Positions 7,417-51,748 of a stretch of 51,748 nucleotides of DNA are shown piece by piece. The position numbers were made by a program, and so were the translations under genes. A model generated the notes under the pieces. The model was not told the DNA's origin. It did no database searches and saw only the letters and a program-made list of their open reading frames with translations. The stretch covers positions 1 to 51,748 of IMG/VR virus record IMGVR_UViG_3300021420_000007. One strand, given 5' to 3'. The DNA comes from a virus (lineage: Duplodnaviria > Caudoviricetes). Within the stretch, counting starts at the first letter, position 1; each line of letters starts with the position of its first letter.

Positions 7417-9141
7417 ATGCCTCCATCAATTCCGGCCTCGCGCCTTGCTCAAGTAATTCCTGGCGTGCTGTCGGCTGGCGGCAACCCGCTATCGCTTAAC
7501 TCAGTTTATCTCACGCCGGACACATCCATTCCCATCGGGACTGCGCAGCCGTTCGCGAGCGCGGCCGACGTGTCGGATTGGTTCGGTCCGACCGCGCCTG
7601 AGACGGTTTTGGCCAATGTCTATTTTGACGGTTTCATTAATTGCACTGTGTTGCCGAGTACGCTGTTTTTTGCGCAGTTCAACTCTGCGTCGGTTAATGC
7701 GTATTTACGTGGCGGTAGTGTCGCAGCTATGACGCTCGCGCAATTGAATGCGTTGTCTGGAACTATCGCACTCACGGTTGATGGCGTGCTGGTTACGTCG
7801 GCAGCAATCAATCTGTCGGGTGCTACCAGTTTCACCAATGCCGCGACTCTGTTGCAGGCAGGTTTGCAGACGACAGGCAACGTGTTCTCAGGTACGGCTT
7901 CGCAGTCACTCGGCGTGGTTGATATTCTTTCGACCGTTTCGGGATCGCTGGCCGTCGGCGACGTACTGAACGGCACTGGCGTCTCTGGGCCGGCCACCAT
8001 TGCGTCGTTCGGTACATACACCGTGCTTGCGGGAACCGGTACCGTGAATGTCAGTACGTCTGCCACCGTTACGACGGGAACGGCTACAGTCACGATTCTG
8101 CCGACTGTCACTTATGACACGCTGCGCAAAGCTTTCGTTATTACATCGCCGACGACTGGCGCCAATTCGAGCATTGGTTTTCCGGCCACGGGTGCGCTGT
8201 CTACAGGTATCAATCTTACGGCTGCTACGGGCGCTGTGTTGTCGCAAGGGGCCATCGCCGTAACGCCGGCCGGTCTTATGGGGCAGGTTGTCGCCGCGAC
8301 ACAGAATTGGGCAACGTTTATGACCGTCGCGGAGCAAATCCTATCAATCAAGGAAGCTTTCGCCGCATGGGTACAGACGACCAATCAGCGGTATCTGTTC
8401 GTGTGTCAGGATTCTGACGCGACGCCGACCACGAGTCCTAGTGCGACAGGATCGTTCGGCAACATCGTCAACGCTGCGCAGGATACTGGCGTGATGCCTG
8501 TGTATGATATCAGCGGTTCGAGCGTTATTGCTGCGTTCCAAACGGCCATTGCCGCGTCCATCAATTTCAATCAGCAAAACGGCCGTACAATAGCGGCGTT
8601 CCGTGGCCAAGCAGGACTCACGGCGCAAGTGACTAATGAGACGGTTTACAACAACCTGATCGCGAACGGTTATAATTGCTATGCGTCCTTTGCGACAGCT
8701 AACCAGCAATTTACGCAGAATCAGCCCGGCCAAATATCGGGAGCGTTCCGTTGGTTTGATACTTACATCGATCAGATTTACCTCAATAGCCAATTCCAAT
8801 TGGCTTTGATGAATCTACTGGCGAACGTGCCAGCCGTGCCGTACGTTACCCGTGGGTTCAATCTGATTCGTAGCGCGTTGCTCGACCCCATCAAACAAGG
8901 GTTGAACTTCGGCAGTATCGTCAAGGGCGTGACGCTTTCCTCGGCACAGTCGGCCGCGCTCAACAGTGCGACGGGCGATCTGAGCGCAACAGCCACGATT
9001 CAGAACACGGGTTGGTACTTGCAGATTCTCGACCCGGGCGCCATCGTACGCGGCGGGCGCGGTACGCCTACGATCAATTTCTACTACACCGACGGTGGCA
9101 GCGTGCAGCAAATCAGCATGTCATCGGTCGATGTTCTGTAA
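7417..9141 (+). CDS. Tail sheath protein (DUF3383-like)
   Basis: IPASRLAQVIPGVLSAGG, TQNWATF and YYTDGGSVQQI motifs; 574 aa. Confidence 0.9.
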   Translation: MPPSIPASRLAQVIPGVLSAGGNPLSLNSVYLTPDTSIPIGTAQPFASAADVSDWFGPTAPETVLANVYFDGFINCTVLPSTLFFAQFNSASVNAYLRGGSVAAMTLAQLNALSGTIALTVDGVLVTSAAINLSGATSFTNAATLLQAGLQTTGNVFSGTASQSLGVVDILSTVSGSLAVGDVLNGTGVSGPATIASFGTYTVLAGTGTVNVSTSATVTTGTATVTILPTVTYDTLRKAFVITSPTTGANSSIGFPATGALSTGINLTAATGAVLSQGAIAVTPAGLMGQVVAATQNWATFMTVAEQILSIKEAFAAWVQTTNQRYLFVCQDSDATPTTSPSATGSFGNIVNAAQDTGVMPVYDISGSSVIAAFQTAIAASINFNQQNGRTIAAFRGQAGLTAQVTNETVYNNLIANGYNCYASFATANQQFTQNQPGQISGAFRWFDTYIDQIYLNSQFQLALMNLLANVPAVPYVTRGFNLIRSALLDPIKQGLNFGSIVKGVTLSSAQSAALNSATGDLSATATIQNTGWYLQILDPGAIVRGGRGTPTINFYYTDGGSVQQISMSSVDVL

Positions 9142-10262: not shown

Positions 10263-11792
10263 TTGGCAACAGTAATTGACTCTCTTGTTGTTCTACTCGG
10301 TCTTGACGCCAGTAATTACAAAAAAGGCCGCGAGACAGCCGAGAAAGAGACGACCGAGACGGCCCGCAAATCAAAAGAAGCGGCCGACGCAATCACGAAG
10401 TCGTTAACCGAAGTTGGCCGCACGGTCGCGAGCTTATTTCTTGGTTTTGAGTCGGTGTCAGGATTTACCAAATTCCTGAGCGGCCTTAATAGCGGTGAGG
10501 CGGCGTTGGGGCGTACGGCCGCCAACATAGGCATGAGCGCCCACGAACTGAACAAATGGGGCAACGCCGTCAAATTGGCTGGCGGCGACGCGACAGACGC
10601 GCAATCTGCGTTCTCTCAATTAACCGAAGATTTCCAGAAAATGACAACGACGGGCGAACAGTCCGCGCTGTTGCAATTCTTGCGTGCCCGTAGCGTAAAC
10701 ATTCGCGACGCCAACGGCAACTTACGCGATCAGGGTGAAATATTTGAAGAACTTGCCGACAAGACTGCGCAGTACGGCCGCGCTTATCAACAAACGATGT
10801 TTAAGCAAGTCGGGATATCGCAAGGTGAAATAAATTATCTCGTGCAGTCCAAAGCGCTCCGTGAGGACCAATTGCGCTTAGCAGAGAAAAATAACGGCGT
10901 GACCGAAGCTTCGATACGTGAAGCGCAACAGTTGCAAGAATACTGGCGTAATGTCGGCATACAGATTGAGGCGGCCGGCCAAAAAGTTCTCAATGTGCTC
11001 ACGCCGGCAGTTCGCGGCGCGTTTACCGAAGTATCAAAACTCATGGATGAATTCAAGAATACGGGTGGTCTTGACCGTGTCGGGCAGGTAATGCGTGTCA
11101 TCGGCAACATTGCTTCGGCTATTGGCAACAGTATTAGTTTTTGGGTCAAAACCGTAAACGACTCTGCGATTGGCAAATATTTCGATTTCATGTTCAAGTT
11201 ATATGGCAAAGGACTCGATTTACTTGCGCCGCCCACGCCAGGGGCGGCTGTCGCCGCGCCACGCAATACCGGCGCTGCCACGCCGCAAGTAAGCCCCGAT
11301 GTGGGTATAAACTACGTGCCGCCAGCCGGCAGCAAGGCGGCGCGGTTTAACAACCCGGGCAACATACTCGATAAAAGCGGCGTTGAACGTAAATATGCAA
11401 CGCTTGAAGAAGGCCGCGACGCGCTAGAAAAAGATCTACGCGTCAAGATGCAACGTGGTCTTAAAACGGTCGATGCCATCATTGATGCGTACGAAGGCGG
11501 CGACAATGTCAGAAATAATATCCCCGCATATACCGCGGACGTGCGCAACCGGCTTGGCAAGAACGAACTGACCGAAGCTGACATCAAACAATTGGCGCTC
11601 GCCATATCCACGCATGAAAGCGGCCCGGGCGTCGCGCGTGCCGCGCCTGCCGCTGGCAGTACGACGACCGTAGAGATTGATACGATCAACATACATTCGG
11701 CAAGCGCAGACCCGCGTGCTGTAGCCGAACAAGTACCGGCCGCGATTCAACGTAAGTTCTCAGTCACACAAGCCGACACGGGACAGAGCTAA
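10263..11792 (+). CDS. Tape measure protein with C-terminal lysozyme-like domain
   Basis: TVIDSLVVLLGLD N-terminus, helical Ala/Gln-rich body, C-terminal RFNNPGNI…THESG. Confidence 0.85.
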   Translation: MATVIDSLVVLLGLDASNYKKGRETAEKETTETARKSKEAADAITKSLTEVGRTVASLFLGFESVSGFTKFLSGLNSGEAALGRTAANIGMSAHELNKWGNAVKLAGGDATDAQSAFSQLTEDFQKMTTTGEQSALLQFLRARSVNIRDANGNLRDQGEIFEELADKTAQYGRAYQQTMFKQVGISQGEINYLVQSKALREDQLRLAEKNNGVTEASIREAQQLQEYWRNVGIQIEAAGQKVLNVLTPAVRGAFTEVSKLMDEFKNTGGLDRVGQVMRVIGNIASAIGNSISFWVKTVNDSAIGKYFDFMFKLYGKGLDLLAPPTPGAAVAAPRNTGAATPQVSPDVGINYVPPAGSKAARFNNPGNILDKSGVERKYATLEEGRDALEKDLRVKMQRGLKTVDAIIDAYEGGDNVRNNIPAYTADVRNRLGKNELTEADIKQLALAISTHESGPGVARAAPAAGSTTTVEIDTINIHSASADPRAVAEQVPAAIQRKFSVTQADTGQS

Positions 11793-12530: not shown

Positions 12531-12896
12531 ATGCTGCAAATACCAGTGAGCGCCGTTGCATCGCAGACGCTTTCAATCGTGCTCGACAATCAGAGTTGCC
12601 AAATTGCTATCTATCAAAAGCAACCGATTGTCGATGAATACGGGGTAGCGGCCGGGCTATTTTTTGACTTGATTGTAGGCGGCGTGCCGATCATCAATAC
12701 GGCGCGTTGTCTCGACCGTACACGGCTATTGCTCGACCGACAGTATCTTGGTGTGGTCGGTGATTTCATGTTTCTAGACACGACTGCGACCGAAGGCGGC
12801 CCGCCAACATTTAACGGAGCGCCACCGTACTATACGGGTCTCGGATCGCAATTCGTGTTGCTTTATCTTGAGGCATCTGACCTTGCCAGCATCTAG
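12531..12896 (+). CDS. Baseplate protein
   Basis: IPVSAVASQTL..YLGVVGDFMFLDT..YTGLGSQFVL pattern. Confidence 0.75.
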   Translation: MLQIPVSAVASQTLSIVLDNQSCQIAIYQKQPIVDEYGVAAGLFFDLIVGGVPIINTARCLDRTRLLLDRQYLGVVGDFMFLDTTATEGGPPTFNGAPPYYTGLGSQFVLLYLEASDLASI

Positions 12897-13815
12897 TTAC
12901 ACAGTCAAAAATCTGCGTGTGACATTCACGTTAACAGGCAGCAATGCTGTGTTCCCGGGCACGACAGCGAATAAACTGCAAGTGTCTGGACTGCGCATGT
13001 CCGCGGTAATCAAAGGCTCGGGGTTGCCGGCGTTTCCCGAGGCATCATTGCGTATCTACGGACTTGCGCAGCAAGACATGAACGCACTGGCCATTGTGCC
13101 TGTGCAGGGCGGCAAACCTGAGTTTTCATTCAATACGGTGCAGATTGAGGCGGATAGCGGCAATGGTTTTACGTTCGTTTTCTCAGGTCAAATATTTCAG
13201 GCCGGGCCGGACTACTCGAACTTGCCCGACGTGTGTTTATTCGTTCATGCACAGTCAGCCGGATTTGACCAACTTACGGCGGCCAATCCGACGGCCTATC
13301 CTGGCACAGCCAACGTGGCTGATATCGTGGCCAATCTCGCTTCAAAAATGTCTATGGCTTTTGAGAATGACGGTGTGACCGGTACGCTCACGGGGGCGTA
13401 CTACTCGGGCACTCTCACGAGCCAATTGCGCAAGCTGTGTCAGGATGCGAATATTTACTACGCCATGGAAAACCAAAACTTGCTCGTCATCTCGCCGGCC
13501 GGCGTAGCGCGCAAGAATGTTGACACATGGGTATTGACACCAACGTCAGGGCTCGTCGGCTACCCGGAAGTGCTCGGCAATGGGTACCTCAACGTCCGTT
13601 CATTGTTCAATCCTGCATTCCGGCAGAATGGGCCGATAACGATTCAAGGTAGCGACGTGGTTATTGACCCGTCGCTGCCCAAGACCCTCAACAGCCTGGC
13701 CGATGGGGATTGGGTCATAGGTCCGCTGACCCATACGCTCGAATGTCAGAAGCCCGGCGGCGCGTGGTTCACTGATATGAAACTCTATCCCCCTAATGCG
13801 GTGCCCGCAGCATGA
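12868..13815 (+). CDS. Baseplate hub protein
   Basis: LRIYGL, FSGQI, GLVGYP and LFNP motifs; upstream of the spike gene; start may be TTG about 12883. Confidence 0.75.
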   Translation: MRHLTLPASSYTVKNLRVTFTLTGSNAVFPGTTANKLQVSGLRMSAVIKGSGLPAFPEASLRIYGLAQQDMNALAIVPVQGGKPEFSFNTVQIEADSGNGFTFVFSGQIFQAGPDYSNLPDVCLFVHAQSAGFDQLTAANPTAYPGTANVADIVANLASKMSMAFENDGVTGTLTGAYYSGTLTSQLRKLCQDANIYYAMENQNLLVISPAGVARKNVDTWVLTPTSGLVGYPEVLGNGYLNVRSLFNPAFRQNGPITIQGSDVVIDPSLPKTLNSLADGDWVIGPLTHTLECQKPGGAWFTDMKLYPPNAVPAA

Positions 13816-15536
13816 GCGCCGTAGGTCAAGCCAACCCGTTCAGTGATGCAAGCGAGTTCAACACGCTGGCGTTTATCATCGACCGTGCAACCGAGGAAAT
13901 GCAAACCGTGTCGATTGTCCAAGTCAAGGCCGTCAACACGGGCGCACAAACGGTGGACGTGCAAGTACTCGTCAATCTCATGACGGGTGCGAATATCTCG
14001 GTACCCCACGGGGTCATATCGGCGCGGCCATACTTTCGCGCGCAAGGCGGCACGAGCGGTATTATTCTGGATCCCGTCGTGGGCGACATTGGCGTCATGG
14101 TGTTTGCCTCGCGAGACTCCTCGGCCGTCATTTCGGCGAAGGGACTTGCAAATCCGGGAAGTAAACGTAGGTTCTCGTGGTCAGATGGCGTCTACTTTGG
14201 GGGCGTTCTAAACACGCCGCCAACACAGTACGTGAAGCTCAATTCATCGGGCATCACCATTCTGTCACCGACCGCGGTATTGATTCAGTCGCCGGCTAAC
14301 ATGGTGTCAGGTCCGCTCGCAGTCAGTGGCGCTACCACGCTGCAAGCAACGCTGCATGTGATCGGCAATGTGCAAATGGATGGCACGCTAAACGTTAACG
14401 GAATAATTACCTCGGGTACGGAAGTGTCGGCGCCCATTGGGTCATTTGGGTCGCTGGTAGTTTCCACAGGCCCCGTGACTGTGCCAGCGGCCAGCATTCC
14501 CACATCAGCGCTTGGCCCGTCAGGAGTCACGGCAGGCAGCTATACGAACATGAACGCGACGGTGAACGCCGCAGGGATCATAACAGCAGCGGCGAATGGC
14601 TCAAGCTCAGGCTCACCGTTGACCACGAAGGGCGATCTATTCGGCTACAGTACGACAGTTGCACGCGTGCCTATTGGCAGTAACGGACAAGTTTTAACTG
14701 CGGACAGCACGCAAGCCTTAGGACTCAAATGGGCAATACCTAGCAGCGGATCACTGTCAATTACGGACGGTACGACGACGGTGGCAGGCACCACATCGCT
14801 TACTGTAGTTGGTGGCGTGGTATCAGGCGCAACGCCGAACGCCACATTGACGATTGCGGGCGGCAGTCCGGGCATACCTGCAACGATTCCTGATCTTTGC
14901 TATTGGTGGCAGGCTGATATTCCTTTGACGACGGTGGGTTATCCGATTCAGCGTCTAGTTGATAGTGGCCCCTCTAGCCAAAACCATGCAGGATTTCAAT
15001 CAGGATCAGGTGTAGTGTTATCGGCGACGCAATTAAACGGCAAGAATGTTTATACCTGGCCGGGCGCTACTTCGGGACGTGTATTTTTCTCTACGCCAAT
15101 CTATCTTCCTAAAAGCACAATGTTTTTTGTGGTGCGAACTAAAGCGAGTGGTACGCAAGCGTTCAATATTTCAGGTCCGAATGGCGCGTATCAGATCGGG
15201 CAAGATTCCACTAACAACAAAATTGCGTTAGTTAAGGCCGCTGTAATTATTATTGGTGAATCTTCAGCATTGGCGCCTAACACAGCCGTACAGTTCAATG
15301 CGACTTACGACGGCACGACGGGTAATTATGCCATTCGTATATCGCAGGCCAATGATTCAAGCGGAACGAATTTTCAAACTATTACTAATGTAACGAATTC
15401 TTTCGGGTTCAACGCCGCTTCTGGTGCTGAAGATATCGTAGGCGACACCGCGGAACTGGTCATATACGATAGGATTTTAACGCTAACCGAAATTCAATCA
15501 GTGGAATCCTACCTACATACAAAATGGGGTGTCTGA
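13812..15536 (+). CDS. Baseplate central spike (Gp138-N-like) with long C-terminal extension including a LamG-like domain
   Basis: PYFRAQGG..IILDPVVGDIG..FASRD..RRFSWSDG N-terminus; C-terminal GDTAELVIYDRILT…YLHTKWGV. Confidence 0.8.
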   Translation: MSAVGQANPFSDASEFNTLAFIIDRATEEMQTVSIVQVKAVNTGAQTVDVQVLVNLMTGANISVPHGVISARPYFRAQGGTSGIILDPVVGDIGVMVFASRDSSAVISAKGLANPGSKRRFSWSDGVYFGGVLNTPPTQYVKLNSSGITILSPTAVLIQSPANMVSGPLAVSGATTLQATLHVIGNVQMDGTLNVNGIITSGTEVSAPIGSFGSLVVSTGPVTVPAASIPTSALGPSGVTAGSYTNMNATVNAAGIITAAANGSSSGSPLTTKGDLFGYSTTVARVPIGSNGQVLTADSTQALGLKWAIPSSGSLSITDGTTTVAGTTSLTVVGGVVSGATPNATLTIAGGSPGIPATIPDLCYWWQADIPLTTVGYPIQRLVDSGPSSQNHAGFQSGSGVVLSATQLNGKNVYTWPGATSGRVFFSTPIYLPKSTMFFVVRTKASGTQAFNISGPNGAYQIGQDSTNNKIALVKAAVIIIGESSALAPNTAVQFNATYDGTTGNYAIRISQANDSSGTNFQTITNVTNSFGFNAASGAEDIVGDTAELVIYDRILTLTEIQSVESYLHTKWGV

Positions 15537-15906
15537 CATGGCCGCGCCGTTCTCAACTTTATTGCTCGATGTAGGCTCGTGGGATTTGACCCTCGACGCC
15601 TTTGGCAACATTGCCGTTGCTGCGCCGCCCTATGCGCTCGCGCAAGACGTGGCTAGCGCGTGCCGTACTGTGCTCGGTGAGGTATACTACGACACATCGT
15701 TAGGTGTGGATTACTTTGGACTGATTTTTGGCAAGACGCCGCCCGCCCCAGTATTCCAAGAACAGTTTGTAACGGCTGCAAAGACAGTGCCTGGCGTTGT
15801 TTCTGCGACGTGCATTATTGAATCATATTCGGCCGCGACACGCGAAGCCACGGGGCAAGTTTTGTTTACCGATATCAACCATCAGACGCAGACGATAGGA
15901 CTATAG
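15529..15906 (+). CDS. Baseplate wedge/sheath initiator
   Basis: WDLTLDAFGNIA..AQDVASACR..GEVYYDTSLGV pattern. Confidence 0.8.
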   Translation: MSDMAAPFSTLLLDVGSWDLTLDAFGNIAVAAPPYALAQDVASACRTVLGEVYYDTSLGVDYFGLIFGKTPPAPVFQEQFVTAAKTVPGVVSATCIIESYSAATREATGQVLFTDINHQTQTIGL

Positions 15907-15910
15907 GAAC

Positions 15911-17173
15911 ATGGTAGACACAACTAATGTACCTTCGCCGGTATTCACGCCTACAGGTCTTGTGCTACCGCAAGAGGCTGCCATTTTGGCCGGCGTGCAG
16001 CAAGATTACAATGCGGCATTTGGCGGCAATCTCAACCCGGCATTGAACTCTCCGCAAGGCCAATTGTGTTCAAGCACGGCCGCCATGATTGCGAATGGTA
16101 ACACGGTATTCGCCACGTTTGTCAACCAAGTAGATCCTGACACGGCAACGGGATTCATGCAGGACGCAATCGGCCGTATCTATTTCATGAATCGCAAAGG
16201 CGCCGTACCTACCACGGTAAATTTGCAATGTGTCGGCGCGTTCGGTACGCCCATTCCAGTCGGAGCGCTTGCGCAAGACACGAGCGGAAACATTTATTCA
16301 TGTACGCAAGCTGGAAATATTCCGGTTGGCGGTTCGATTACATTGGCGTTTGCTAATATCATTGCGGGACCAATCGCGTGCCCGCCTAATACTGTCACGA
16401 TCATTTATCGAGGAATCAACGGTTGGGAGTCGGTCAACAATTCTGCGGCCGGTACGATTGGTGCTAACGTCGAGTCGCCGGCTGCATTTGAATATCGCCG
16501 GCAACAGTCTGTCGGGATCAATGCACAAGGTTCGATACCAGCGATCTACGCTGCATGCTTCAGCGTAGCCAACGTTATCGATGTATTTGTCACACAAAAC
16601 AATACGGGCGCGGTCATTTCAGGACCCATCAACAACAACCCGAACTCGACTGCTTATCCAGTCGCTGCACATTCGGTTTACGTGGCCGTGACAGGCGGCG
16701 CTGCACAACTTGTGGCTAATGCCATATGGCGCGCCACAAACATCGGCGCCGCTTATCAGACTGCGGCCGGCAGTGCGGGTGCGACACTCGTATCAGAAAC
16801 CGTAACAGACAATAGTGGGTACAGCATCCCAGTGCCGGCGTATACAGTCAATTTCATCAACCCGGTTGCGACGCCGATTTTCTTTGCCGTCACATTGGCT
16901 GCCAGCGCGTTGTTGCCCTCGAACATTCATACGCTTGTACAACAAGCCATCATTGCACAATTCACAGGGGGGACACCCGGAAGTCTGCGCGAGCGTATAG
17001 GCGCGCAAGTTCTCGCATCTCGATACTTTGGTCCAGTTCAAGCGATAGGTCCTGAGGTTTCGATTTTGACTATCACTATCGGGTTTAACTCGGGTGTCGG
17101 CAATGCAAGTTTGCAAATGGGCATTGACCAAGAGCCAACGATAACGGCCGTCAATATCGCGGTATCGCCGTAA
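15911..17173 (+). CDS. Baseplate J-like protein
   Basis: PQGQL, QDAIGRIYF, ESPAAFEYRR and HSVYVAVTGG motifs. Confidence 0.88.
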   Translation: MVDTTNVPSPVFTPTGLVLPQEAAILAGVQQDYNAAFGGNLNPALNSPQGQLCSSTAAMIANGNTVFATFVNQVDPDTATGFMQDAIGRIYFMNRKGAVPTTVNLQCVGAFGTPIPVGALAQDTSGNIYSCTQAGNIPVGGSITLAFANIIAGPIACPPNTVTIIYRGINGWESVNNSAAGTIGANVESPAAFEYRRQQSVGINAQGSIPAIYAACFSVANVIDVFVTQNNTGAVISGPINNNPNSTAYPVAAHSVYVAVTGGAAQLVANAIWRATNIGAAYQTAAGSAGATLVSETVTDNSGYSIPVPAYTVNFINPVATPIFFAVTLAASALLPSNIHTLVQQAIIAQFTGGTPGSLRERIGAQVLASRYFGPVQAIGPEVSILTITIGFNSGVGNASLQMGIDQEPTITAVNIAVSP

Positions 17174-19773
17174 TGTCATTCTCAGGTTCAACTCCGCTTC
17201 TTAGTCCGTCTGAATTTACGATCACGGCGACGCCGCCCGATTCAAATAGTTTCGGCGGCTATTCCGTTGGTAGCGGCGAAGCACGCGCCACACAAATATC
17301 CAATCATGAGACAACGGGATTTCTGTTTGTATCGACCACGTCGGGCGCACAAACGGATAATTGTTATGTCGCCATAGACATTCCCGCAGATAGTGAATAC
17401 TACAGTTTAGGCGCACAGTTTGAGCCGGGATTTGGCCTAGACGGAACTCATTTTTTCACGCTTGAATTTTTCTTGAGCGCGGGTACACCGCAAGTACTTT
17501 CCCAAGTCAACGTCATCATTAATAACGGTGGCGCATCTTATACGACGCCTGTTGATCTTTTATCTATTCCACGTTTTGCTCACGACGGAACGTTGCCGTT
17601 ATCCGTTGCCGCCGCGCTATCCGGGACAATGCTGACGGTGTACGCGCGTAATGGTGCTACCGGCCCGTGGTTTGCCTGTACGCCTGCATTTGATCTTACC
17701 CCCTATGTGAGCGCGGCAACACTTCTCACGTGGGCGGCAGCCATGCGTGGATATTCGGGTGGTGTGCCTACGACCGCAACGCGCGCCAGTGCGATGTACT
17801 GGGGTCCAATTTCCGATTTGACAGGTCCGTCATGTGACATAAATTTCAATGATGTAGTCTTGCTACTGCCATTCGATGGCACAAATGGATCTACGGCCTA
17901 CCCCGATTTATCGAACTACGCAAACACGGTAGTTCAAGGAACGGGCGCATCGCTGACTACGAGTAATCCGCTTTTTGGCACAGCGTCACTGGCCGTTGCG
18001 GGTCTGAATCATCTTGGTAGTTTTGCAACCGCTGTTCCATATGCGGCAGGATCGCCGCTTGATATTTTTGCTGATTCGTCCTGGTCTATTGAATGTGCCA
18101 CATACATAACTGTCTACGGGGCACAACAGTCTCCCATTATTGACTACGGCGGAGTGCAGACTAGCGGGGCGTCGTCCGATGTTGTTGTCTTTGCGGGGCT
18201 CAACAATGATGGAATAACGGGATACGTCAACGTCACGGATAATTCGGCTTTTAGCTCCGGGGTAACGCTTAGTGCCACTGGGCCGATGACCGCGAATACA
18301 TGGCATCGCATAGGAATTTTTAATAATGCGGGCGTGACAACAGTCTATCTCGATGGAGTCGCAGGAACATCTACGACTCTATGGACACCCGCACACTACA
18401 CGCATAGTGGTGCCACGAATGTAGTGATTGGATCGTGGGCGCAATTGAGCAATTCTTCGCCGCCCGTGCAAATAGATGAGCTAAGGATTACGGCAGGTAT
18501 TGCTCGGCAGACTTCAAACTATACGCCGCCCATCAATGCGTTTCCGACGATTAGCTGTACGGCGACCGTTCCGAATGTCGAAGGATTATTTGACGCTCCG
18601 GCGCGTGCTGCGATCATAGCGGCAAATCTTGTCGTTGGAACTGTAACGATTATTGCCGGAAGTCCCCCCGGCCAAGTTGCGTTGCAGTCCCCTATAGGGG
18701 GAACCATTGTTCCAACAGGTAGTATGGTCAATCTCACGGAGTACGAAGGGGTTTTAGTCCCTAGCGTTGCCAACACGTCGCTCTCTGTCGTTGCACCTGC
18801 CATTCTATCGGCCTCGGGTTTTATCGTAGGTACGGTCACGTATGAAGCCAGCGGCACCATAATTGCCGGCAATGTCATACGTCAGTCGCCCGCGGCCGGC
18901 TCATTCGCTTCTAGCGGTTCTGGCATCAACTTAGTTGTATCCTCGGGTCTGCCGTCGCTTCGCGTGCCGGATATATTCGGCCTATCGCGGACGGATGCAA
19001 TTAACGCTTTGCTCAGTCTTGGTCTTGTGGTTGGTGCGATCAGTTCAGCGCCGTCCATGATTGTTCCACCCAATACAGTACAGGCACAAAATCCAAGCGC
19101 CGGTACTCCCGTTGCCGCTGGCACTATTGTCAGTTTTGTCATGTCGACGGGCATACCGGCCGTTGGCACTGAATTTGACTTTGAAGCTACCGTTATTTCG
19201 CAATATGCGAACAGCCCAATCATTTTGCAGCTAGTTAATAATCTCAATCAGTACATCGACCAATCGGCAAACTTTGCCAATTTCTACAATTTCGTTTGGA
19301 ATGTTGACACGGCTGTCGGTTTCGGCCTCGACGTATGGGGCAAGATTGTCGGCGTGTCGCGGTTGCTACAGATCCCGAACACGACCGACTACGTAGGATT
19401 CGACAATGGCACGCGGTCGCCACCTGATTGGCAAAGCATGGGCAGCAATCAGCCGCCCGGGCCGCCCGTTGGGGGTGCAATGTACACGGGGTACAACGCA
19501 ACGACCGCATATTTGCTTGGCGACGATGCATACCGGCAATTGATTCTTGCCAAGGCATTCGCGAATATTGCAGCGACAACCGCGCCGGCTATCAATCAGA
19601 TTTTGCAAAATCTTTACGGTCCGGGTACCGCGTGGGTACTCAACACGGGGCCGATGGCCATTTCATATAACCTGAGTTTCAAGCCATCTGCAATCCAATT
19701 GGCGATACTCGAACAGTCGGGCGTTATCCCGACGCCTCCGGGCGTTTCCGTGACAATCGTAGTCCCGCCATAG
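17173..19773 (+). CDS. Baseplate wedge protein (C-terminal DUF2612) with N-terminal LamG-like and 3 PASTA-like domains
   Basis: C-terminal TVISQYANSP..TAVGFGLDVWGKIVG..DDAYRQLILAKA; three VP.V.G…QSP..G..V.L.VS repeats; VVLLLPFDG…IDELRIT LamG signature. Confidence 0.85.
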   Translation: MSFSGSTPLLSPSEFTITATPPDSNSFGGYSVGSGEARATQISNHETTGFLFVSTTSGAQTDNCYVAIDIPADSEYYSLGAQFEPGFGLDGTHFFTLEFFLSAGTPQVLSQVNVIINNGGASYTTPVDLLSIPRFAHDGTLPLSVAAALSGTMLTVYARNGATGPWFACTPAFDLTPYVSAATLLTWAAAMRGYSGGVPTTATRASAMYWGPISDLTGPSCDINFNDVVLLLPFDGTNGSTAYPDLSNYANTVVQGTGASLTTSNPLFGTASLAVAGLNHLGSFATAVPYAAGSPLDIFADSSWSIECATYITVYGAQQSPIIDYGGVQTSGASSDVVVFAGLNNDGITGYVNVTDNSAFSSGVTLSATGPMTANTWHRIGIFNNAGVTTVYLDGVAGTSTTLWTPAHYTHSGATNVVIGSWAQLSNSSPPVQIDELRITAGIARQTSNYTPPINAFPTISCTATVPNVEGLFDAPARAAIIAANLVVGTVTIIAGSPPGQVALQSPIGGTIVPTGSMVNLTEYEGVLVPSVANTSLSVVAPAILSASGFIVGTVTYEASGTIIAGNVIRQSPAAGSFASSGSGINLVVSSGLPSLRVPDIFGLSRTDAINALLSLGLVVGAISSAPSMIVPPNTVQAQNPSAGTPVAAGTIVSFVMSTGIPAVGTEFDFEATVISQYANSPIILQLVNNLNQYIDQSANFANFYNFVWNVDTAVGFGLDVWGKIVGVSRLLQIPNTTDYVGFDNGTRSPPDWQSMGSNQPPGPPVGGAMYTGYNATTAYLLGDDAYRQLILAKAFANIAATTAPAINQILQNLYGPGTAWVLNTGPMAISYNLSFKPSAIQLAILEQSGVIPTPPGVSVTIVVPP

Positions 19774-19785
19774 TAGAATAGCGTT

Positions 19786-21006
19786 ATGCCAAGTACTCTC
19801 GTAACTCCGCTGTTGATTTCCGTGCCGTGGGGCGTCGGCGCCGCGAATCCAACTTATATTAAGTTGCCGATTCCTGTGCCGTCACAGATTTCCACAACGA
19901 TCAATTCCGCGTCGTTCACAGATGGTTTCCCGCCGAACACCATGACCCCGGAAGCTTCAGGCGGCCTGCCATTTTTTGGCCAGGAAATGAACGGTATTCT
20001 GTGGATGATATCGGCCTACTGCGCTAATTTCGCGGCCGGCGCTCTGTCGCCTTATAACGCTACATTATCGGCTGACATTTCTGGTTACCCGGTTGGCGTC
20101 GTTCTTGTGAATGCCAACGGCGATGGTCTTTGGATCAATCAGGTAAGCGGTAATACGACCGATCCTGACACGGGCGGCGCGGGTTGGTTGCCGGCCGCTG
20201 GTGTCGGTGCGGCTGCGCAAGCGCTCGCATCGTCAAACGTGACGTTGACCGCGCTACAATCCGCATTGCCGTATGTCGCATTGTCGGGAACACTTGGCGC
20301 GAACGTCAACGTCGTATTTCCAACCAACGACGGGCAATCGTGGATCGTGTCGAATTCCTGTACGGGCGCTTTTACCGTGACAGCCAAAACGGCCGCGGGC
20401 ACGGGCGTTACAATTCCCGCGACAGGTACCACGGCGCCCACGTCGATTTATTGTGATGGCACGAATATACAAAATACGGGCGTCTCAACGGCGGGTCTTG
20501 CGCCGATCAACAGCCCTGCGTTAACCGGCACGCCGACGACGCCAACAGCAGGCGCTACTAGCAACACGACACAAATCGCCTCGACGGCTATGGTGCAAGC
20601 GGCGATTACGGCCGCATTGTCGCTGTATGCGCTCAAGGCTTCGCCGATATTCTCAGGTACGCCGACTGCACCGACGCCAGCCGCCAATGACAATTCACTC
20701 AAGCTCGCGACGACACAGTATGTTGACCGGGCCGTCACCGGCACTAGCTCGCTGACAGGTAACGGATATGAAATCCGGCCGAGCGGTGTCATCGAGCAAT
20801 GGGGTTATGCGGGACCATCCTCAGGCGGCGGCCAGGTCGTTACATTTCCGATCCCATTTCCAACGGCGTGTTTTGCAATCGTTGCGACAGCTTCACCGAG
20901 CAATGGCACTATCAACGTGTCCAATCCTGCATCGAGCCGCACACAATTCACTCTCACCAATGGAGCTTCGGGTAATTTTACCTCGTGGCGTGCAATAGGG
21001 CATTGA
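19786..21006 (+). CDS. Tail fibre protein
   Basis: ASFTDGFPP..GQEMNGIL N-terminus, SPALTGTPTTPT repeats, C-terminal PSGVIEQWG..FPIPFPTAC..WRAIGH. Confidence 0.88.
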   Translation: MPSTLVTPLLISVPWGVGAANPTYIKLPIPVPSQISTTINSASFTDGFPPNTMTPEASGGLPFFGQEMNGILWMISAYCANFAAGALSPYNATLSADISGYPVGVVLVNANGDGLWINQVSGNTTDPDTGGAGWLPAAGVGAAAQALASSNVTLTALQSALPYVALSGTLGANVNVVFPTNDGQSWIVSNSCTGAFTVTAKTAAGTGVTIPATGTTAPTSIYCDGTNIQNTGVSTAGLAPINSPALTGTPTTPTAGATSNTTQIASTAMVQAAITAALSLYALKASPIFSGTPTAPTPAANDNSLKLATTQYVDRAVTGTSSLTGNGYEIRPSGVIEQWGYAGPSSGGGQVVTFPIPFPTACFAIVATASPSNGTINVSNPASSRTQFTLTNGASGNFTSWRAIGH

Positions 21007-21007
21007 T

Positions 21008-21277
21008 ATGAACGAAGTTTCAAACGAAGCCATAATGGGCGTATTGCTCGATATCAAGGGCGATATCGGCGAACTCAAAGGCCATGTGACAAGTACGCAG
21101 AGCGCACTTGCCGCGCACGTCATAGACGACCAACGGTTAGGCGAAGCTGTGCAGCGGTTACAAATCACACAGGCCAAACAGCGCGGATTCGTCGCGGCGC
21201 TATCCACGGTCGGCGCGGTCCTAGGCGCGGGCCTTGGAGCCGCAGTCGACTACTTTTCGCGCGGTGGCCACCATTGA
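21008..21277 (+). CDS. Putative holin/membrane protein (coiled coil plus C-terminal TM)
   Basis: Hydrophobic C-terminus; directly upstream of the endolysin. Confidence 0.55.
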   Translation: MNEVSNEAIMGVLLDIKGDIGELKGHVTSTQSALAAHVIDDQRLGEAVQRLQITQAKQRGFVAALSTVGAVLGAGLGAAVDYFSRGGHH

Positions 21278-21735
21278 ACCTCATTGATTTCGTCAAAGCT
21301 CGTGAGGGCCGCGCGACTGACAACCACGATGGCACGGTTACGGCGTACCTAGATACCAATGCCAAGCCGCCAGTGCCGACCATTGGTTATGGGACGACAG
21401 GCCCCGAAATCGTGCTTGGCCTCATATGGACCTACGCGCAGTGCGATGCGGCCCTAGCCGTCAAACTCGACCGTGCCCGGGCGCAGCTTCTCGCGCTGTC
21501 GCCCAGCGTGACATGGCCGGCCGGCGCTCAAGACGCACTGACAGATTTCGTTTATAACGAAGGCTCAGGCAATTACCAGCATTCAACCGTGCGTAAATGC
21601 GTCGAGGCAGGCGATTGGGCCGGAGTCCGTGCCCATCTACTCGACTGGGAATTTGCAGGCGGGAAGCGTCTAGGCGGCCTCGTAACACGCCGCGTGGATG
21701 AGACAGCTATGATCGGCATTACATCTGCGGTATAA
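21274..21735 (+). CDS. Endolysin, GH24 lysozyme
   Basis: EG…AYLD…PTIGYG, FVYNEG and GLVTRR motifs. Confidence 0.88.
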   Translation: MNLIDFVKAREGRATDNHDGTVTAYLDTNAKPPVPTIGYGTTGPEIVLGLIWTYAQCDAALAVKLDRARAQLLALSPSVTWPAGAQDALTDFVYNEGSGNYQHSTVRKCVEAGDWAGVRAHLLDWEFAGGKRLGGLVTRRVDETAMIGITSAV

Positions 21736-22089: not shown

Positions 22090-22292
22090 TTCAGGCTCGC
22101 GATATACGCGATTGGCTAGTCATGGGGCTAGTTACAATCGCGTGGATCGCTGCGACTGTGTTTCTGTACAAGTTCCACAGCGACATGAATTTCGCCACGT
22201 GGGCCACGTTTTCGGCCACGATTACCGGCGTGTATCATTGGCTCACTGTGCATGACGACAAAACCCCGGACTGCAACCATGACGCCAATTAA
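22071..22292 (+). CDS. Putative 2-TM holin
   Basis: Two hydrophobic segments and a charged tail; within the lysis cassette. Confidence 0.55.
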   Translation: MALPEIIQARDIRDWLVMGLVTIAWIAATVFLYKFHSDMNFATWATFSATITGVYHWLTVHDDKTPDCNHDAN

Positions 22293-22737
22293 GCTCTATT
22301 CGTATCTTGCCGTTATTCTACTTGCGGCCGGTCTGTTCGGCGGCTATACGCTGCACGAACGGCATGTGCAGCATGCGAAGGACATAGCCGCGGCGGCCCG
22401 TGTCGTCGCGAAAGATAATGCAATTGTCGCTGCCGATGATTCTCACGCTCAAACTACAGAGACTCAAAATGCGCTTATTTATAAACAGGTTGTTTCAATT
22501 CCTGCCGTTGCTGATATTGGCCTCGTGTGCGAGCGCGCCGCCGGTAGTGTTCCACTGCCCTCGGCCGACGCCGTCGCAACAGCCCCAACTAGAGACGACG
22601 CCGCCCAGCGTGGAGTCAGACCAAGCTACAATCCTTCAGGGGCCATCCTCACTCGCGCCCGTGACGCCGACGCCGAAATAGCATATTTGCAGCGCCGTGT
22701 GGCAGAACTTAAAAAGCAGATGAACGACGCGCCTTAG
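22252..22737 (+). CDS. i-spanin (Rz-like)
   Basis: N-terminal TM followed by helical regions; contains an embedded lipoprotein ORF; start possibly 22279. Confidence 0.75.
   Translation: MTTKPRTATMTPIKLYSYLAVILLAAGLFGGYTLHERHVQHAKDIAAAARVVAKDNAIVAADDSHAQTTETQNALIYKQVVSIPAVADIGLVCERAAGSVPLPSADAVATAPTRDDAAQRGVRPSYNPSGAILTRARDADAEIAYLQRRVAELKKQMNDAP
22469..22681 (+). CDS. o-spanin (Rz1-like lipoprotein) embedded in Rz
   Basis: MRLFINRLFQFLPLLILAS-C lipobox; Pro-rich mature part; +1 frame inside Rz. Confidence 0.75.
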   Translation: MRLFINRLFQFLPLLILASCASAPPVVFHCPRPTPSQQPQLETTPPSVESDQATILQGPSSLAPVTPTPK

Positions 22738-51168: not shown

Positions 51169-51748
51169 ACCCGTCACACTGCGCCCGATTCATGCGAGCG
51201 CGGCGACGGCGGCCTGGTACTTCGTTGAGCTTGAGCGGTTTGCGAATGCTATGCGGGCTGACGTTGAGCGGCATGTGCTAGCGGTATACGGTTCACTCGA
51301 ACCGCAAGAAATGGCGCACGACGCCGCCAACCCTTCGTTGTTACTGCGCGCGGCGTTACGTAAATGGGGCGGCTTGTGGATCAGTCGATTTGATCGGCTA
51401 TCATTGGATCTTGGTCAAGCCTTCGCGCGAAAATCGTTCGGCATTACGCAGACGCAAATGCGCGCGGCGTTGAAAGACGCCGGCTTTACCGTCAAGTTCG
51501 ATCCGACACCCGCGAGCCGCGCCGCGTACCAGTTGGTCATTGCTGAACAAGTCAATCTCATCAAATCGATACCTGCGCAATATCTCAAGGATGTTGAGAG
51601 TAAAGTGTGGAATTCAGTCATGAAGGGTGCCGACATGCATGCGCTGGCGACGGACCTACGAAAAACCTACGGTGTGTCGCGTGACCGGGCGGCCACGATA
51701 GCAAGGGATCAGAACAACAAAGCCAAGGCCATCATTGAGAAAACGCGC
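51128..51748 (+). CDS. Head morphogenesis protein, 5' part (continues into 128-388; about 293 aa in total)
   Basis: ATG at 51128 is in frame (507 nt) with the ORF at 14; MPQLRANPPPNQRKPVTLRPIHAS…VNLIKSIPAQYL. Confidence 0.85.
   Translation, partial: MPQLRANPPPNQRKPVTLRPIHASAATAAWYFVELERFANAMRADVERHVLAVYGSLEPQEMAHDAANPSLLLRAALRKWGGLWISRFDRLSLDLGQAFARKSFGITQTQMRAALKDAGFTVKFDPTPASRAAYQLVIAEQVNLIKSIPAQYLKDVESKVWNSVMKGADMHALATDLRKTYGVSRDRAATIARDQNNKAKAIIEKTR
51622..51748. repeat. Terminal overlap copy of 1-127
   Basis: Exact identity. Confidence 0.95.

Follow-up and report, generated by a model that had tools for sequence, protein, structure and literature searches.

The stretch of DNA analysed here (the window) is the 51,748-bp record IMGVR_UViG_3300021420_000007, a complete uncultivated virus genome from a metagenome-derived record with a GC content of 0.55, and the subject of this report is one of its genes, a single open reading frame (ORF) at 17173..19773 on the + strand. 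Its product of 866 amino acids (aa), called the target below, joins a C-terminal DUF2612 wedge domain to three tandem PASTA repeats and two lectin-type beta-sandwiches. To judge by its sequence, the target corresponds to T4 gp7 and Pam3 gp23 and belongs, as a peripheral wedge subunit, to a simple baseplate of the contractile-tail type. It is rated here as a modular baseplate-borne adhesin with an unexpected stalk domain, the adhesin role being predicted. Six copies per virion would probably form monomeric receptor-binding arms, each stalked by PASTA domains and tipped by lectin-like domains. The architecture is absent from described and isolated phages, yet common in uncultivated phages, where public databases already give it automatic PASTA labels.

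The reading frame is open for 866 codons, and the start codon is backed by the N-terminal motif MSFxGxxPL, which is invariant in 11 of 11 aligned heads. From the N-terminus, the target consists of head domain A, a beta-sandwich of the concanavalin A (ConA)-like/carbohydrate-binding module (CBM) type (17173..17820, aa 1-216), a LamG/ConA-like jelly-roll (17821..18558, aa 217-462), PASTA repeat 1 (18565..18753, aa 465-527), PASTA repeat 2 (18754..18960, aa 528-596), whose type is duplicated in relatives with 4-5 repeats, PASTA repeat 3 (18961..19155, aa 597-661), which lies directly against the anchor, and the anchor itself, the DUF2612/Phage_Wedge1 domain (PF11041) of a gp7-like peripheral wedge subunit (19159..19770, aa 663-866), all encoded on the + strand. 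A hidden Markov model (HMM) trained on the family set the repeat limits at residues 465-527, 528-593 and 597-661, and the best Pfam stretch of the array covers residues 597-659. These domains had been placed correctly to within a few codons by a first-pass annotation made from the DNA letters alone, which had also recognised the last ~200 aa as DUF2612-like and the repeats as PASTA-like. Both assignments are borne out by Pfam, which reports DUF2612 at residues 671-861 with an E-value of 1.6e-48 (165.5 bits against a cut-off of 23.5; model positions 2-180 of 181) and PASTA (PF03793) in three stretches, the first repeat included, with an E-value of 7.8e-25 (87.1 bits against a cut-off of 23.2).

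Comparison with sequences in the PDB leads to the same families. The C-terminus matches Pam3 gp23 when searched as a single sequence (E 3.2e-7), and the anchor domain matches Pam3 gp23 (7yfz_C) at E 3.6e-8, 9zd7 gp89 at E 4.5e-5 and the baseplate wedge protein 7kh1 gp17 at E 0.0036. The repeats match the PASTA domains of PrkC/PknB at E 4.5e-8 as a single sequence and at E 4e-28 as a 42-sequence profile, and are thus true PASTA domains. Neurexin/laminin LG domains were matched at E 3e-8 by a profile of 42 relatives. Among the PHROG families, 587 spans the C-terminus of the target, while residues 195-492 are matched by families 3545, 24074 and 38322, which have no assigned function, and by PHROG 8510 ('virion structural protein'); no PHROG matches the PASTA array, the best E-value being 0.19. 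Pfam reports only DUF2612, PASTA and Laminin_G_3 in the target, and neither a kinase nor a transpeptidase domain.

The folds were modelled with AlphaFold2 (AF2). In the full-length model, built from 42 sequences with a mean predicted local distance difference test (pLDDT) score of 74.9, the LamG-like domain (model residues 220-460) and the three PASTA repeats reach a pLDDT of about 90, and residues 1-216 one of about 50-77. Each PASTA repeat is modelled as a helix plus strands, that is, as the one-helix-on-sheet bead, and the top Foldseek matches in the PDB are 5e12 (PknB PASTA 2-4) and the PrkC structures 3py9 and 3m9g, at E 2.4e-11 to 3.7e-10, followed by generic ConA-like jelly-rolls. The LamG-like domain shows a jelly-roll fold with profile-level similarity to LG domains, as read from the 42-relative profile, AF2, Foldseek and BFVD. 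The BFVD matches are phage LamG tail or structural proteins with tandem ConA-like domains and, in addition, one uncultured-phage protein labelled 'PASTA_pknB domain containing'.

Head A has no Pfam or PHROG match and had been left as an unassigned beta domain in the first-pass annotation. AF2, Foldseek and VIA-align now assign it as the second ConA-like/CBM jelly-roll predicted in the target. Its sequence relatives comprise five representatives among 1.84 billion proteins, and the ~200-aa heads of several family members align as divergent copies of head A, with invariant MSFxGxxPL and WGPxSDL motifs. When head A was modelled alone from an 11-sequence alignment, the pLDDT was 77.1, with a predicted template modelling (pTM) score of 0.82. 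The best VIA-align match of this model is the receptor-binding domain of mycobacteriophage TM4 gp23 (Z 14.1, root-mean-square deviation 3.5 over 187 residues), and further matches are CBM66 (Z 12.8), the baseplate of mycobacteriophage Douge (Z 12.2) and the Dit CBM2 of phage J-1 (Z 9.8). Foldseek finds L-type lectins and accessory beta-sandwiches of GH43 proteins at E-values of about 1e-5.

The fusion is genuine. The relatives analysed were the best 120 of 135 with E <= 0.001 among 7,999 candidates, and 100 of these 120 have the layout of a variable head, 2-5 PASTA repeats and DUF2612, with two repeats in 21, three in 58, four in 13 and five in 8. The other 20 comprise nine proteins with DUF2612 and no PASTA, seven with PASTA only, three with LamG only and one with head A only. 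In the majority of relatives the PASTA array stops 1-2 residues short of DUF2612, and about a dozen show a spacing of 4-8 residues or a slight overlap. Examination of the best 80 of 467 relatives found in IMG/VR revealed PASTA in 28 loci and no PASTA in 52. Of the 28 loci with PASTA, 24 have a baseplate-J homolog as the next gene upstream and 22 a tail fibre homolog as the next gene downstream.

Since the window comes from a metagenome-derived virus record, the fusion could in principle be an artefact of chimeric assembly, of an overlooked stop codon or frameshift, or of a phage gene having been joined to a fragment of a bacterial PASTA gene. Such an origin is hardly credible and is refuted by the recurrence of the fusion. 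The frame is open over its whole length, the exact protein is present on 4 contigs, and the layout occurs in 100 related clusters from several sources, with many of the fused relatives on contigs of 44-53 kb. The gene keeps its position in the 28 PASTA-bearing loci, and GC content is even across the domains of the target (0.50-0.55).

Two side observations concern these relatives. One source has automatically named 24 of the 100 listed fused relatives 'beta-lactam-binding protein with PASTA domain', an annotation trap, since readers of virome data could take such proteins for cargo related to antibiotics. P0027 (705 aa) and P0029 (853 aa), two different PASTA-DUF2612 proteins, are both reported on one 78,688-bp contig and could be two paralogs or the result of a concatenated assembly.

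A search of INPHARED, with 50,697 records of isolated phages, gave 188 matches to the target, all of them within the DUF2612 part and none reaching 80% coverage; PASTA and DUF2612 occur together in none of the 50,697 records. The PASTA array alone matched eight unannotated records in this collection, six short 'Listeria phage' contigs and two faecal 'Bacteriophage sp.' entries, and neither name turns up in the organism tally of the DUF2612 matches. The 14 bacterial or metagenome-assembled genome loci with DUF2612 relatives in a species-genome collection, mostly from Proteobacteria with Bordetella best at 49%, include none with PASTA. No description of PASTA in a virion protein was found in the accessible parts of the literature on PASTA in phage baseplate, tail and structural proteins. 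The rarity of the architecture is thus confined to isolates and does not extend to uncultivated phages.

The target shares with modular phage receptor-binding proteins a conserved virion-proximal part and a hypervariable, exchangeable distal part. In 13 relatives, identity to the target is 75-93% in DUF2612, 54-83% in PASTA3, 53-78% in PASTA2 and 42-67% in PASTA1, and the heads are 25-56% identical or their similarity is undetectable. P0003 and P0007 have 93% DUF2612 identity to the target and different heads. When the 100 fused relatives were classed by HMM, 54 had LamG-like heads only (one copy in 45, two in 7, three in 2), 8 had head A only, 36 had neither and 1 was headless; the single protein with both is the target. 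Its LamG-like domain is closest (69%) to that of P0094, another virion protein that matches PHROG 3287 (virion structural protein), and a head-A-like domain is also found on a protein matching PHROG 578 (head closure Hc3). Head modules are seen to move between proteins, with P0127, P0094, P0103 and P0126 as examples; P0103 and P0126 have in common a short, different C-terminal ending.

The stalk varies in another manner. Of the 100 PASTA arrays, 88 terminate in repeat types 2-3, the added repeats are mostly copies of type 2, and the repeat-type strings in relatives include 1223, 12223 and 2223. An unrooted tree of 195 DUF2612 domains (171 distinct), computed with FastTree, contains a clade of 105 rows, all with PASTA (support 97, starred), and a mixed group of 44 rows, 20 with PASTA and 24 without. 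By parsimony, the presence of PASTA requires at least seven changes on this tree, three of them forced by starred branches, compared with a mean of 56.7 after shuffling, and 0 of 500 shuffles were as low as the observed number. Such a small number of changes relative to the shuffles indicates that the fusion is old and mostly vertically inherited, with some gains, losses or recombination.

Other extended forms of the wedge domain came to light among the relatives. In P0110 and P0111 (1133-1147 aa), DUF2612 lies near the N-terminus and is followed by immunoglobulin-like and right-handed beta-helix domains, so that the same wedge domain appears to be extended at its other end by a depolymerase-like module. 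The predicted DUF2612 frames of L065, L078, L083, L084, L093, L072 and L075 are ~500-590 aa long, of which 280-380 aa form an unassigned extension at the N-terminus, and a separate J homolog was not detected directly upstream of them.

The surroundings of the gene read as a minimal contractile-tail (myophage) baseplate module, in which the target lies between a J-like wedge gene and a tail fibre gene. The Baseplate J-like (gp6-like) wedge partner (15911-17173, +; PHROG 6, Pfam Baseplate_J) is directly upstream, and its stop codon is overlapped by the ATG of the target (17173-19773, +). Directly downstream follows a trimeric tail fibre with a gp53-like C-terminus (19786-21006, +; PHROG 12796, Pfam Gp53-like_C). 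The module further comprises the plug (Pam3_gp18; 12531-12896, +) and the hub (E217_GP41; 12868-13815, +), both identified by the PHROG/Pfam scan, a central spike of 574 aa (13812-15536, +) with an N-terminus like phi92 gp138 and a weak likeness to E217 gp43, and a gp25-like sheath initiator (15529-15906, +; PHROG 120). This order of baseplate genes equals that of gp18-gp24 in the accessible description of the cyanophage Pam3. The same scan located the sheath (DUF3383) at 7417-9141, the tape measure at 10263-11792 and a lysozyme at 21274-21735. An exact 127-bp direct terminal repeat at 1-127 and 51622-51748 is consistent with a complete genome, and a tRNA scan of the window found no tRNA genes. 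A weak Laminin_G_3 match (E 0.0075) lies in the long C-terminal extension of the central spike, so that spike and wedge may both bring lectin-like domains to the baseplate. Comparison of the C-terminus of the spike with the target protein found no similarity.

A mechanism for the target can be proposed from these data. By homology, the C-terminal DUF2612 domain would be anchored in the wedge, joining two J-like copies in each of the six wedges and giving the trimeric tail fibres their places to dock. The preceding 660 residues would form a single-chain arm that points outward from the virion, six arms in all, in which the three PASTA domains may serve as a beaded stalk of adjustable length, acting as spacer rather than binder, and the two ConA-like lectin-type beta-sandwiches would occupy the free end. 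The tip would most likely bind a glycan of the host surface, such as lipopolysaccharide (LPS), capsule or exopolysaccharide, and so provide either the main contact for adsorption or a further one. How far the arm reaches would depend on how many PASTA beads it has, 1-5 in relatives, and recombination would swap its heads.

Published systems bear on this arrangement. According to the accessible part of the Pam3 cryo-EM study (PMC9942802), gp23 is the peripheral wedge subunit of this phage, one gp23 joins two gp22 in each of six heterotriplexes, and gp23 supplies both docking sites for the tail fibres. In Pseudomonas phage K8, the DUF2612 protein GP075 (243 aa) with the exchange T239A binds the LPS core oligosaccharide and extends the host range, as reported in the accessible part of PMC9887876, and escape mutations in PaoP5 orf75 indicate a similar link, as cited in the accessible part of a bioRxiv paper. 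The K8 precedent shows that a DUF2612 wedge subunit is placed where the cell can be reached.

Among the closest known systems is Pam3, a minimal myophage. The C-terminal 200 aa of the target are homologous to gp23 (7yfz chain C), the gene occupies the same slot between a J-like gene and a tail fibre gene, and a plug, hub, spike and gp25-like protein likewise surround it. Pam3 gp23, as far as it is described in the accessible text, measures 238 aa and has no extra domains, whereas the target is longer by 660 residues at its N-terminus; in its aligned loop, the cysteines by which the Pam3 fibres are tied to gp23 are not seen. K8 GP075 is a DUF2612 wedge protein that was turned into an extra receptor-binding protein, as demonstrated by experiment (PMC9887876, same part). 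There, the wedge domain itself acquires binding, through point mutations or a short internal duplication; in the target, entire domains have been added on a stalk. A motif of 7 residues that is duplicated in the host-range mutants of K8, as given in that excerpt, also occurs in the solved 243-aa chain 9zd7 gp89, which, on motif and length only, is probably from a K8-like phage. The motif aligns to a low-confidence loop of the target at ~765-775, and the same region aligns with the loop described in the Pam3 excerpt as the cysteine-rich fibre-docking loop of gp23.

The stalk and the tip have their own counterparts. With the PASTA domains of PknB (5e12, 2kui) and PrkC/Stk1 (3py9, 3m9g) the target shares family, fold and the tandem arrangement of beads. 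It differs from these kinases by having no kinase domain, transpeptidase domain or membrane anchor, and by being predicted as a virion protein of a phage that probably infects a Gram-negative host. The C-terminal domain of TM4 gp23 (9n6a) and the evolved Dit CBM2 of J-1 (5ly8) have a ConA-like/CBM fold like the tip of the target (Z 14.1 and 9.8, respectively). Both are siphophage proteins, and the binding domain of TM4 gp23 is C-terminal, whereas the target comes from a myophage, has a C-terminal wedge anchor and a PASTA stalk, and its arm, unlike these systems, is probably monomeric.

The host is likely a diderm bacterium. A 161-aa protein with an N-terminal membrane segment is encoded at 22252-22737 (+), and within it an ORF in another frame (22400-22681, +) encodes the lipobox LILASC followed by a proline-rich tail, which reads as an embedded spanin arrangement. 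No PHROG match was found for the outer spanin-like gene at 22252-22737 or its neighbours. The closest cultured phages listed by sheath all infect Proteobacteria, Burkholderia phages being best with about 50%, and those listed by terminase do so with the exception of one Elizabethkingia phage. The diderm assignment follows from the spanin-like pair together with the mostly proteobacterial phage relatives, and the Gram-negative host to which the spanins had been taken to point in the first-pass annotation is thus plausible.

The same annotation had proposed that host-derived modules were grafted onto a core baseplate protein. Grafting in front of the wedge domain stands; the term 'host-derived' is unsupported, because PASTA was not found in four of the five bacterial genomes with related unfused prophages and was marginal in the fifth, and because the named non-phage proteins whose PASTA arrays most resemble that of the target belong to groups from different phyla, namely Hydrogenedentes, Geobacteraceae, Syntrophobacteraceae, Sedimentisphaerales, Acidobacteria, Myxococcales and Solirubrobacterales.

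Several points weigh against a PASTA-stalked, lectin-tipped arm. The adhesin role is predicted from sequence and modelled folds, and its precedents are DUF2612 proteins that carry no extension. The anchor is C-terminal, the reverse of most receptor-binding proteins. The Pfam match of the LamG-like domain to Laminin_G_3 (PF13385; residues 299-439, E 2.9e-5) scores 24.7 bits, under the curated cut-off of 27.6, so that the domain proposed in the first-pass annotation is carried by the LG profile match and the AF2/Foldseek fold. The ConA-like fold is very common, with 116 chains reaching Z >= 8 against head A, and the TM4 match consequently gives the fold class of head A, not its function. The AF2 model has a pLDDT of 40-72 in DUF2612 and a pTM of 0.48 overall, a low score for DUF2612 being expected because the subunit needs its wedge partners. 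Finally, there are headless forms with one (L039, L060), two (L036), three (L026) or four (P0046) PASTA repeats, in which the array is the distal part and fits a binding role at least as well as that of a spacer.

These headless forms lead to the idea that, as in some PASTA kinases, the PASTA array itself binds the ligand, namely a glycan that is lipid-linked or related to peptidoglycan, and that the lectin heads are optional extras. The array could then keep the baseplate attached to the envelope or, after the outer layers have been breached, detect material of the wall. Some PASTA domains bind muropeptides. The headless forms with 1-4 PASTA repeats are real genes: all four loci have the fibre gene as the next one downstream, and three have the J gene as the next one upstream, where it was not detected for L026. 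The array always adjoins DUF2612 and the 105-row clade contains PASTA-bearing proteins only, which indicates that the stalk was retained while heads changed. A direct binding role is nevertheless rather unlikely. Because the host is likely diderm, peptidoglycan would be out of reach at adsorption; repeat number ranges from 1 to 5, by duplication; and identity decays outward through the array, as in a stalk. All 20 nearly invariant columns of the array are P, G, V, Q, S, A or L and none is charged or aromatic, although such conserved columns of structural residue types are only suggestive, as no sequence motif defines ligand binding by PASTA. In addition, the nearest non-phage PASTA arrays, which make up 7 of the 120 listed relatives, occur in proteins without a kinase or transpeptidase domain. 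The arm might instead make no contact with the host and act as an internal strut on the phage's own fibres, sheath or neighbouring wedges, positioning the fibres or stabilising the baseplate. Pam3 gp23 is a fibre docking platform and T4 has large wedge proteins with accessory domains (PMC9942802, accessible part), and variants of K8 GP075 alter virion stability and interactions between phage proteins (PMC9887876, accessible part). A contact with a conserved partner should itself be conserved, yet no part varies more than the heads, which are exchanged between virion proteins unrelated to one another, and phage receptor-binding domains use lectin/CBM folds like theirs; a purely internal role is unlikely on these grounds.

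A second pairing of PASTA with a wedge domain would speak for a binding role of the array. In the ESM Atlas, three clusters (54, 84 and 76 members; 274-297 aa; commonest phylum Myxococcota) pair PASTA with Tail_P2_I, a P2-like wedge family: 100% of the members carry Tail_P2_I and 83-99% PASTA, with a similarity score to the target of only 0.82. These clusters may represent a second wedge family fused to PASTA and would then be an independent pairing, but with such a score they amount to no more than a lead. A PASTA-array search of shorter proteins listed none with PF09684 among 120, and a Pfam rescan of ten of them gave no Tail_P2_I. In 301 genomes of one non-Myxococcota phylum, Tail_P2_I was found in 17 genomes (19 places), and no ORF in 20 loci matched the PASTA HMM. 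On the broadest version of this idea, PASTA is a dedicated envelope-ligand module that was taken up independently by DUF2612 wedges and by Myxococcota-associated Tail_P2_I wedges, recognises a peptidoglycan-related or lipid-linked glycan in diderm hosts, and anchors or triggers the baseplate. This is decidedly improbable; if true, it would reveal a PASTA function beyond penicillin-binding proteins and kinases, and in Gram-negative biology.

The receptor-binding arm carried by the wedge subunit, in contrast to these alternatives, is the favoured account, and it would give minimal baseplates a natural route to a second adhesin, by the accretion of whole domains on a wedge subunit. The finding extends the contexts of PASTA to virion proteins of phages with probably Gram-negative hosts, and this virion context speaks for PASTA being usable as a general bead outside the cell. 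Taken as a scaffold for retargeting in laboratory phage-host pairs, the architecture would offer a conserved anchor, a stalk of 1-5 beads and exchangeable lectin heads.

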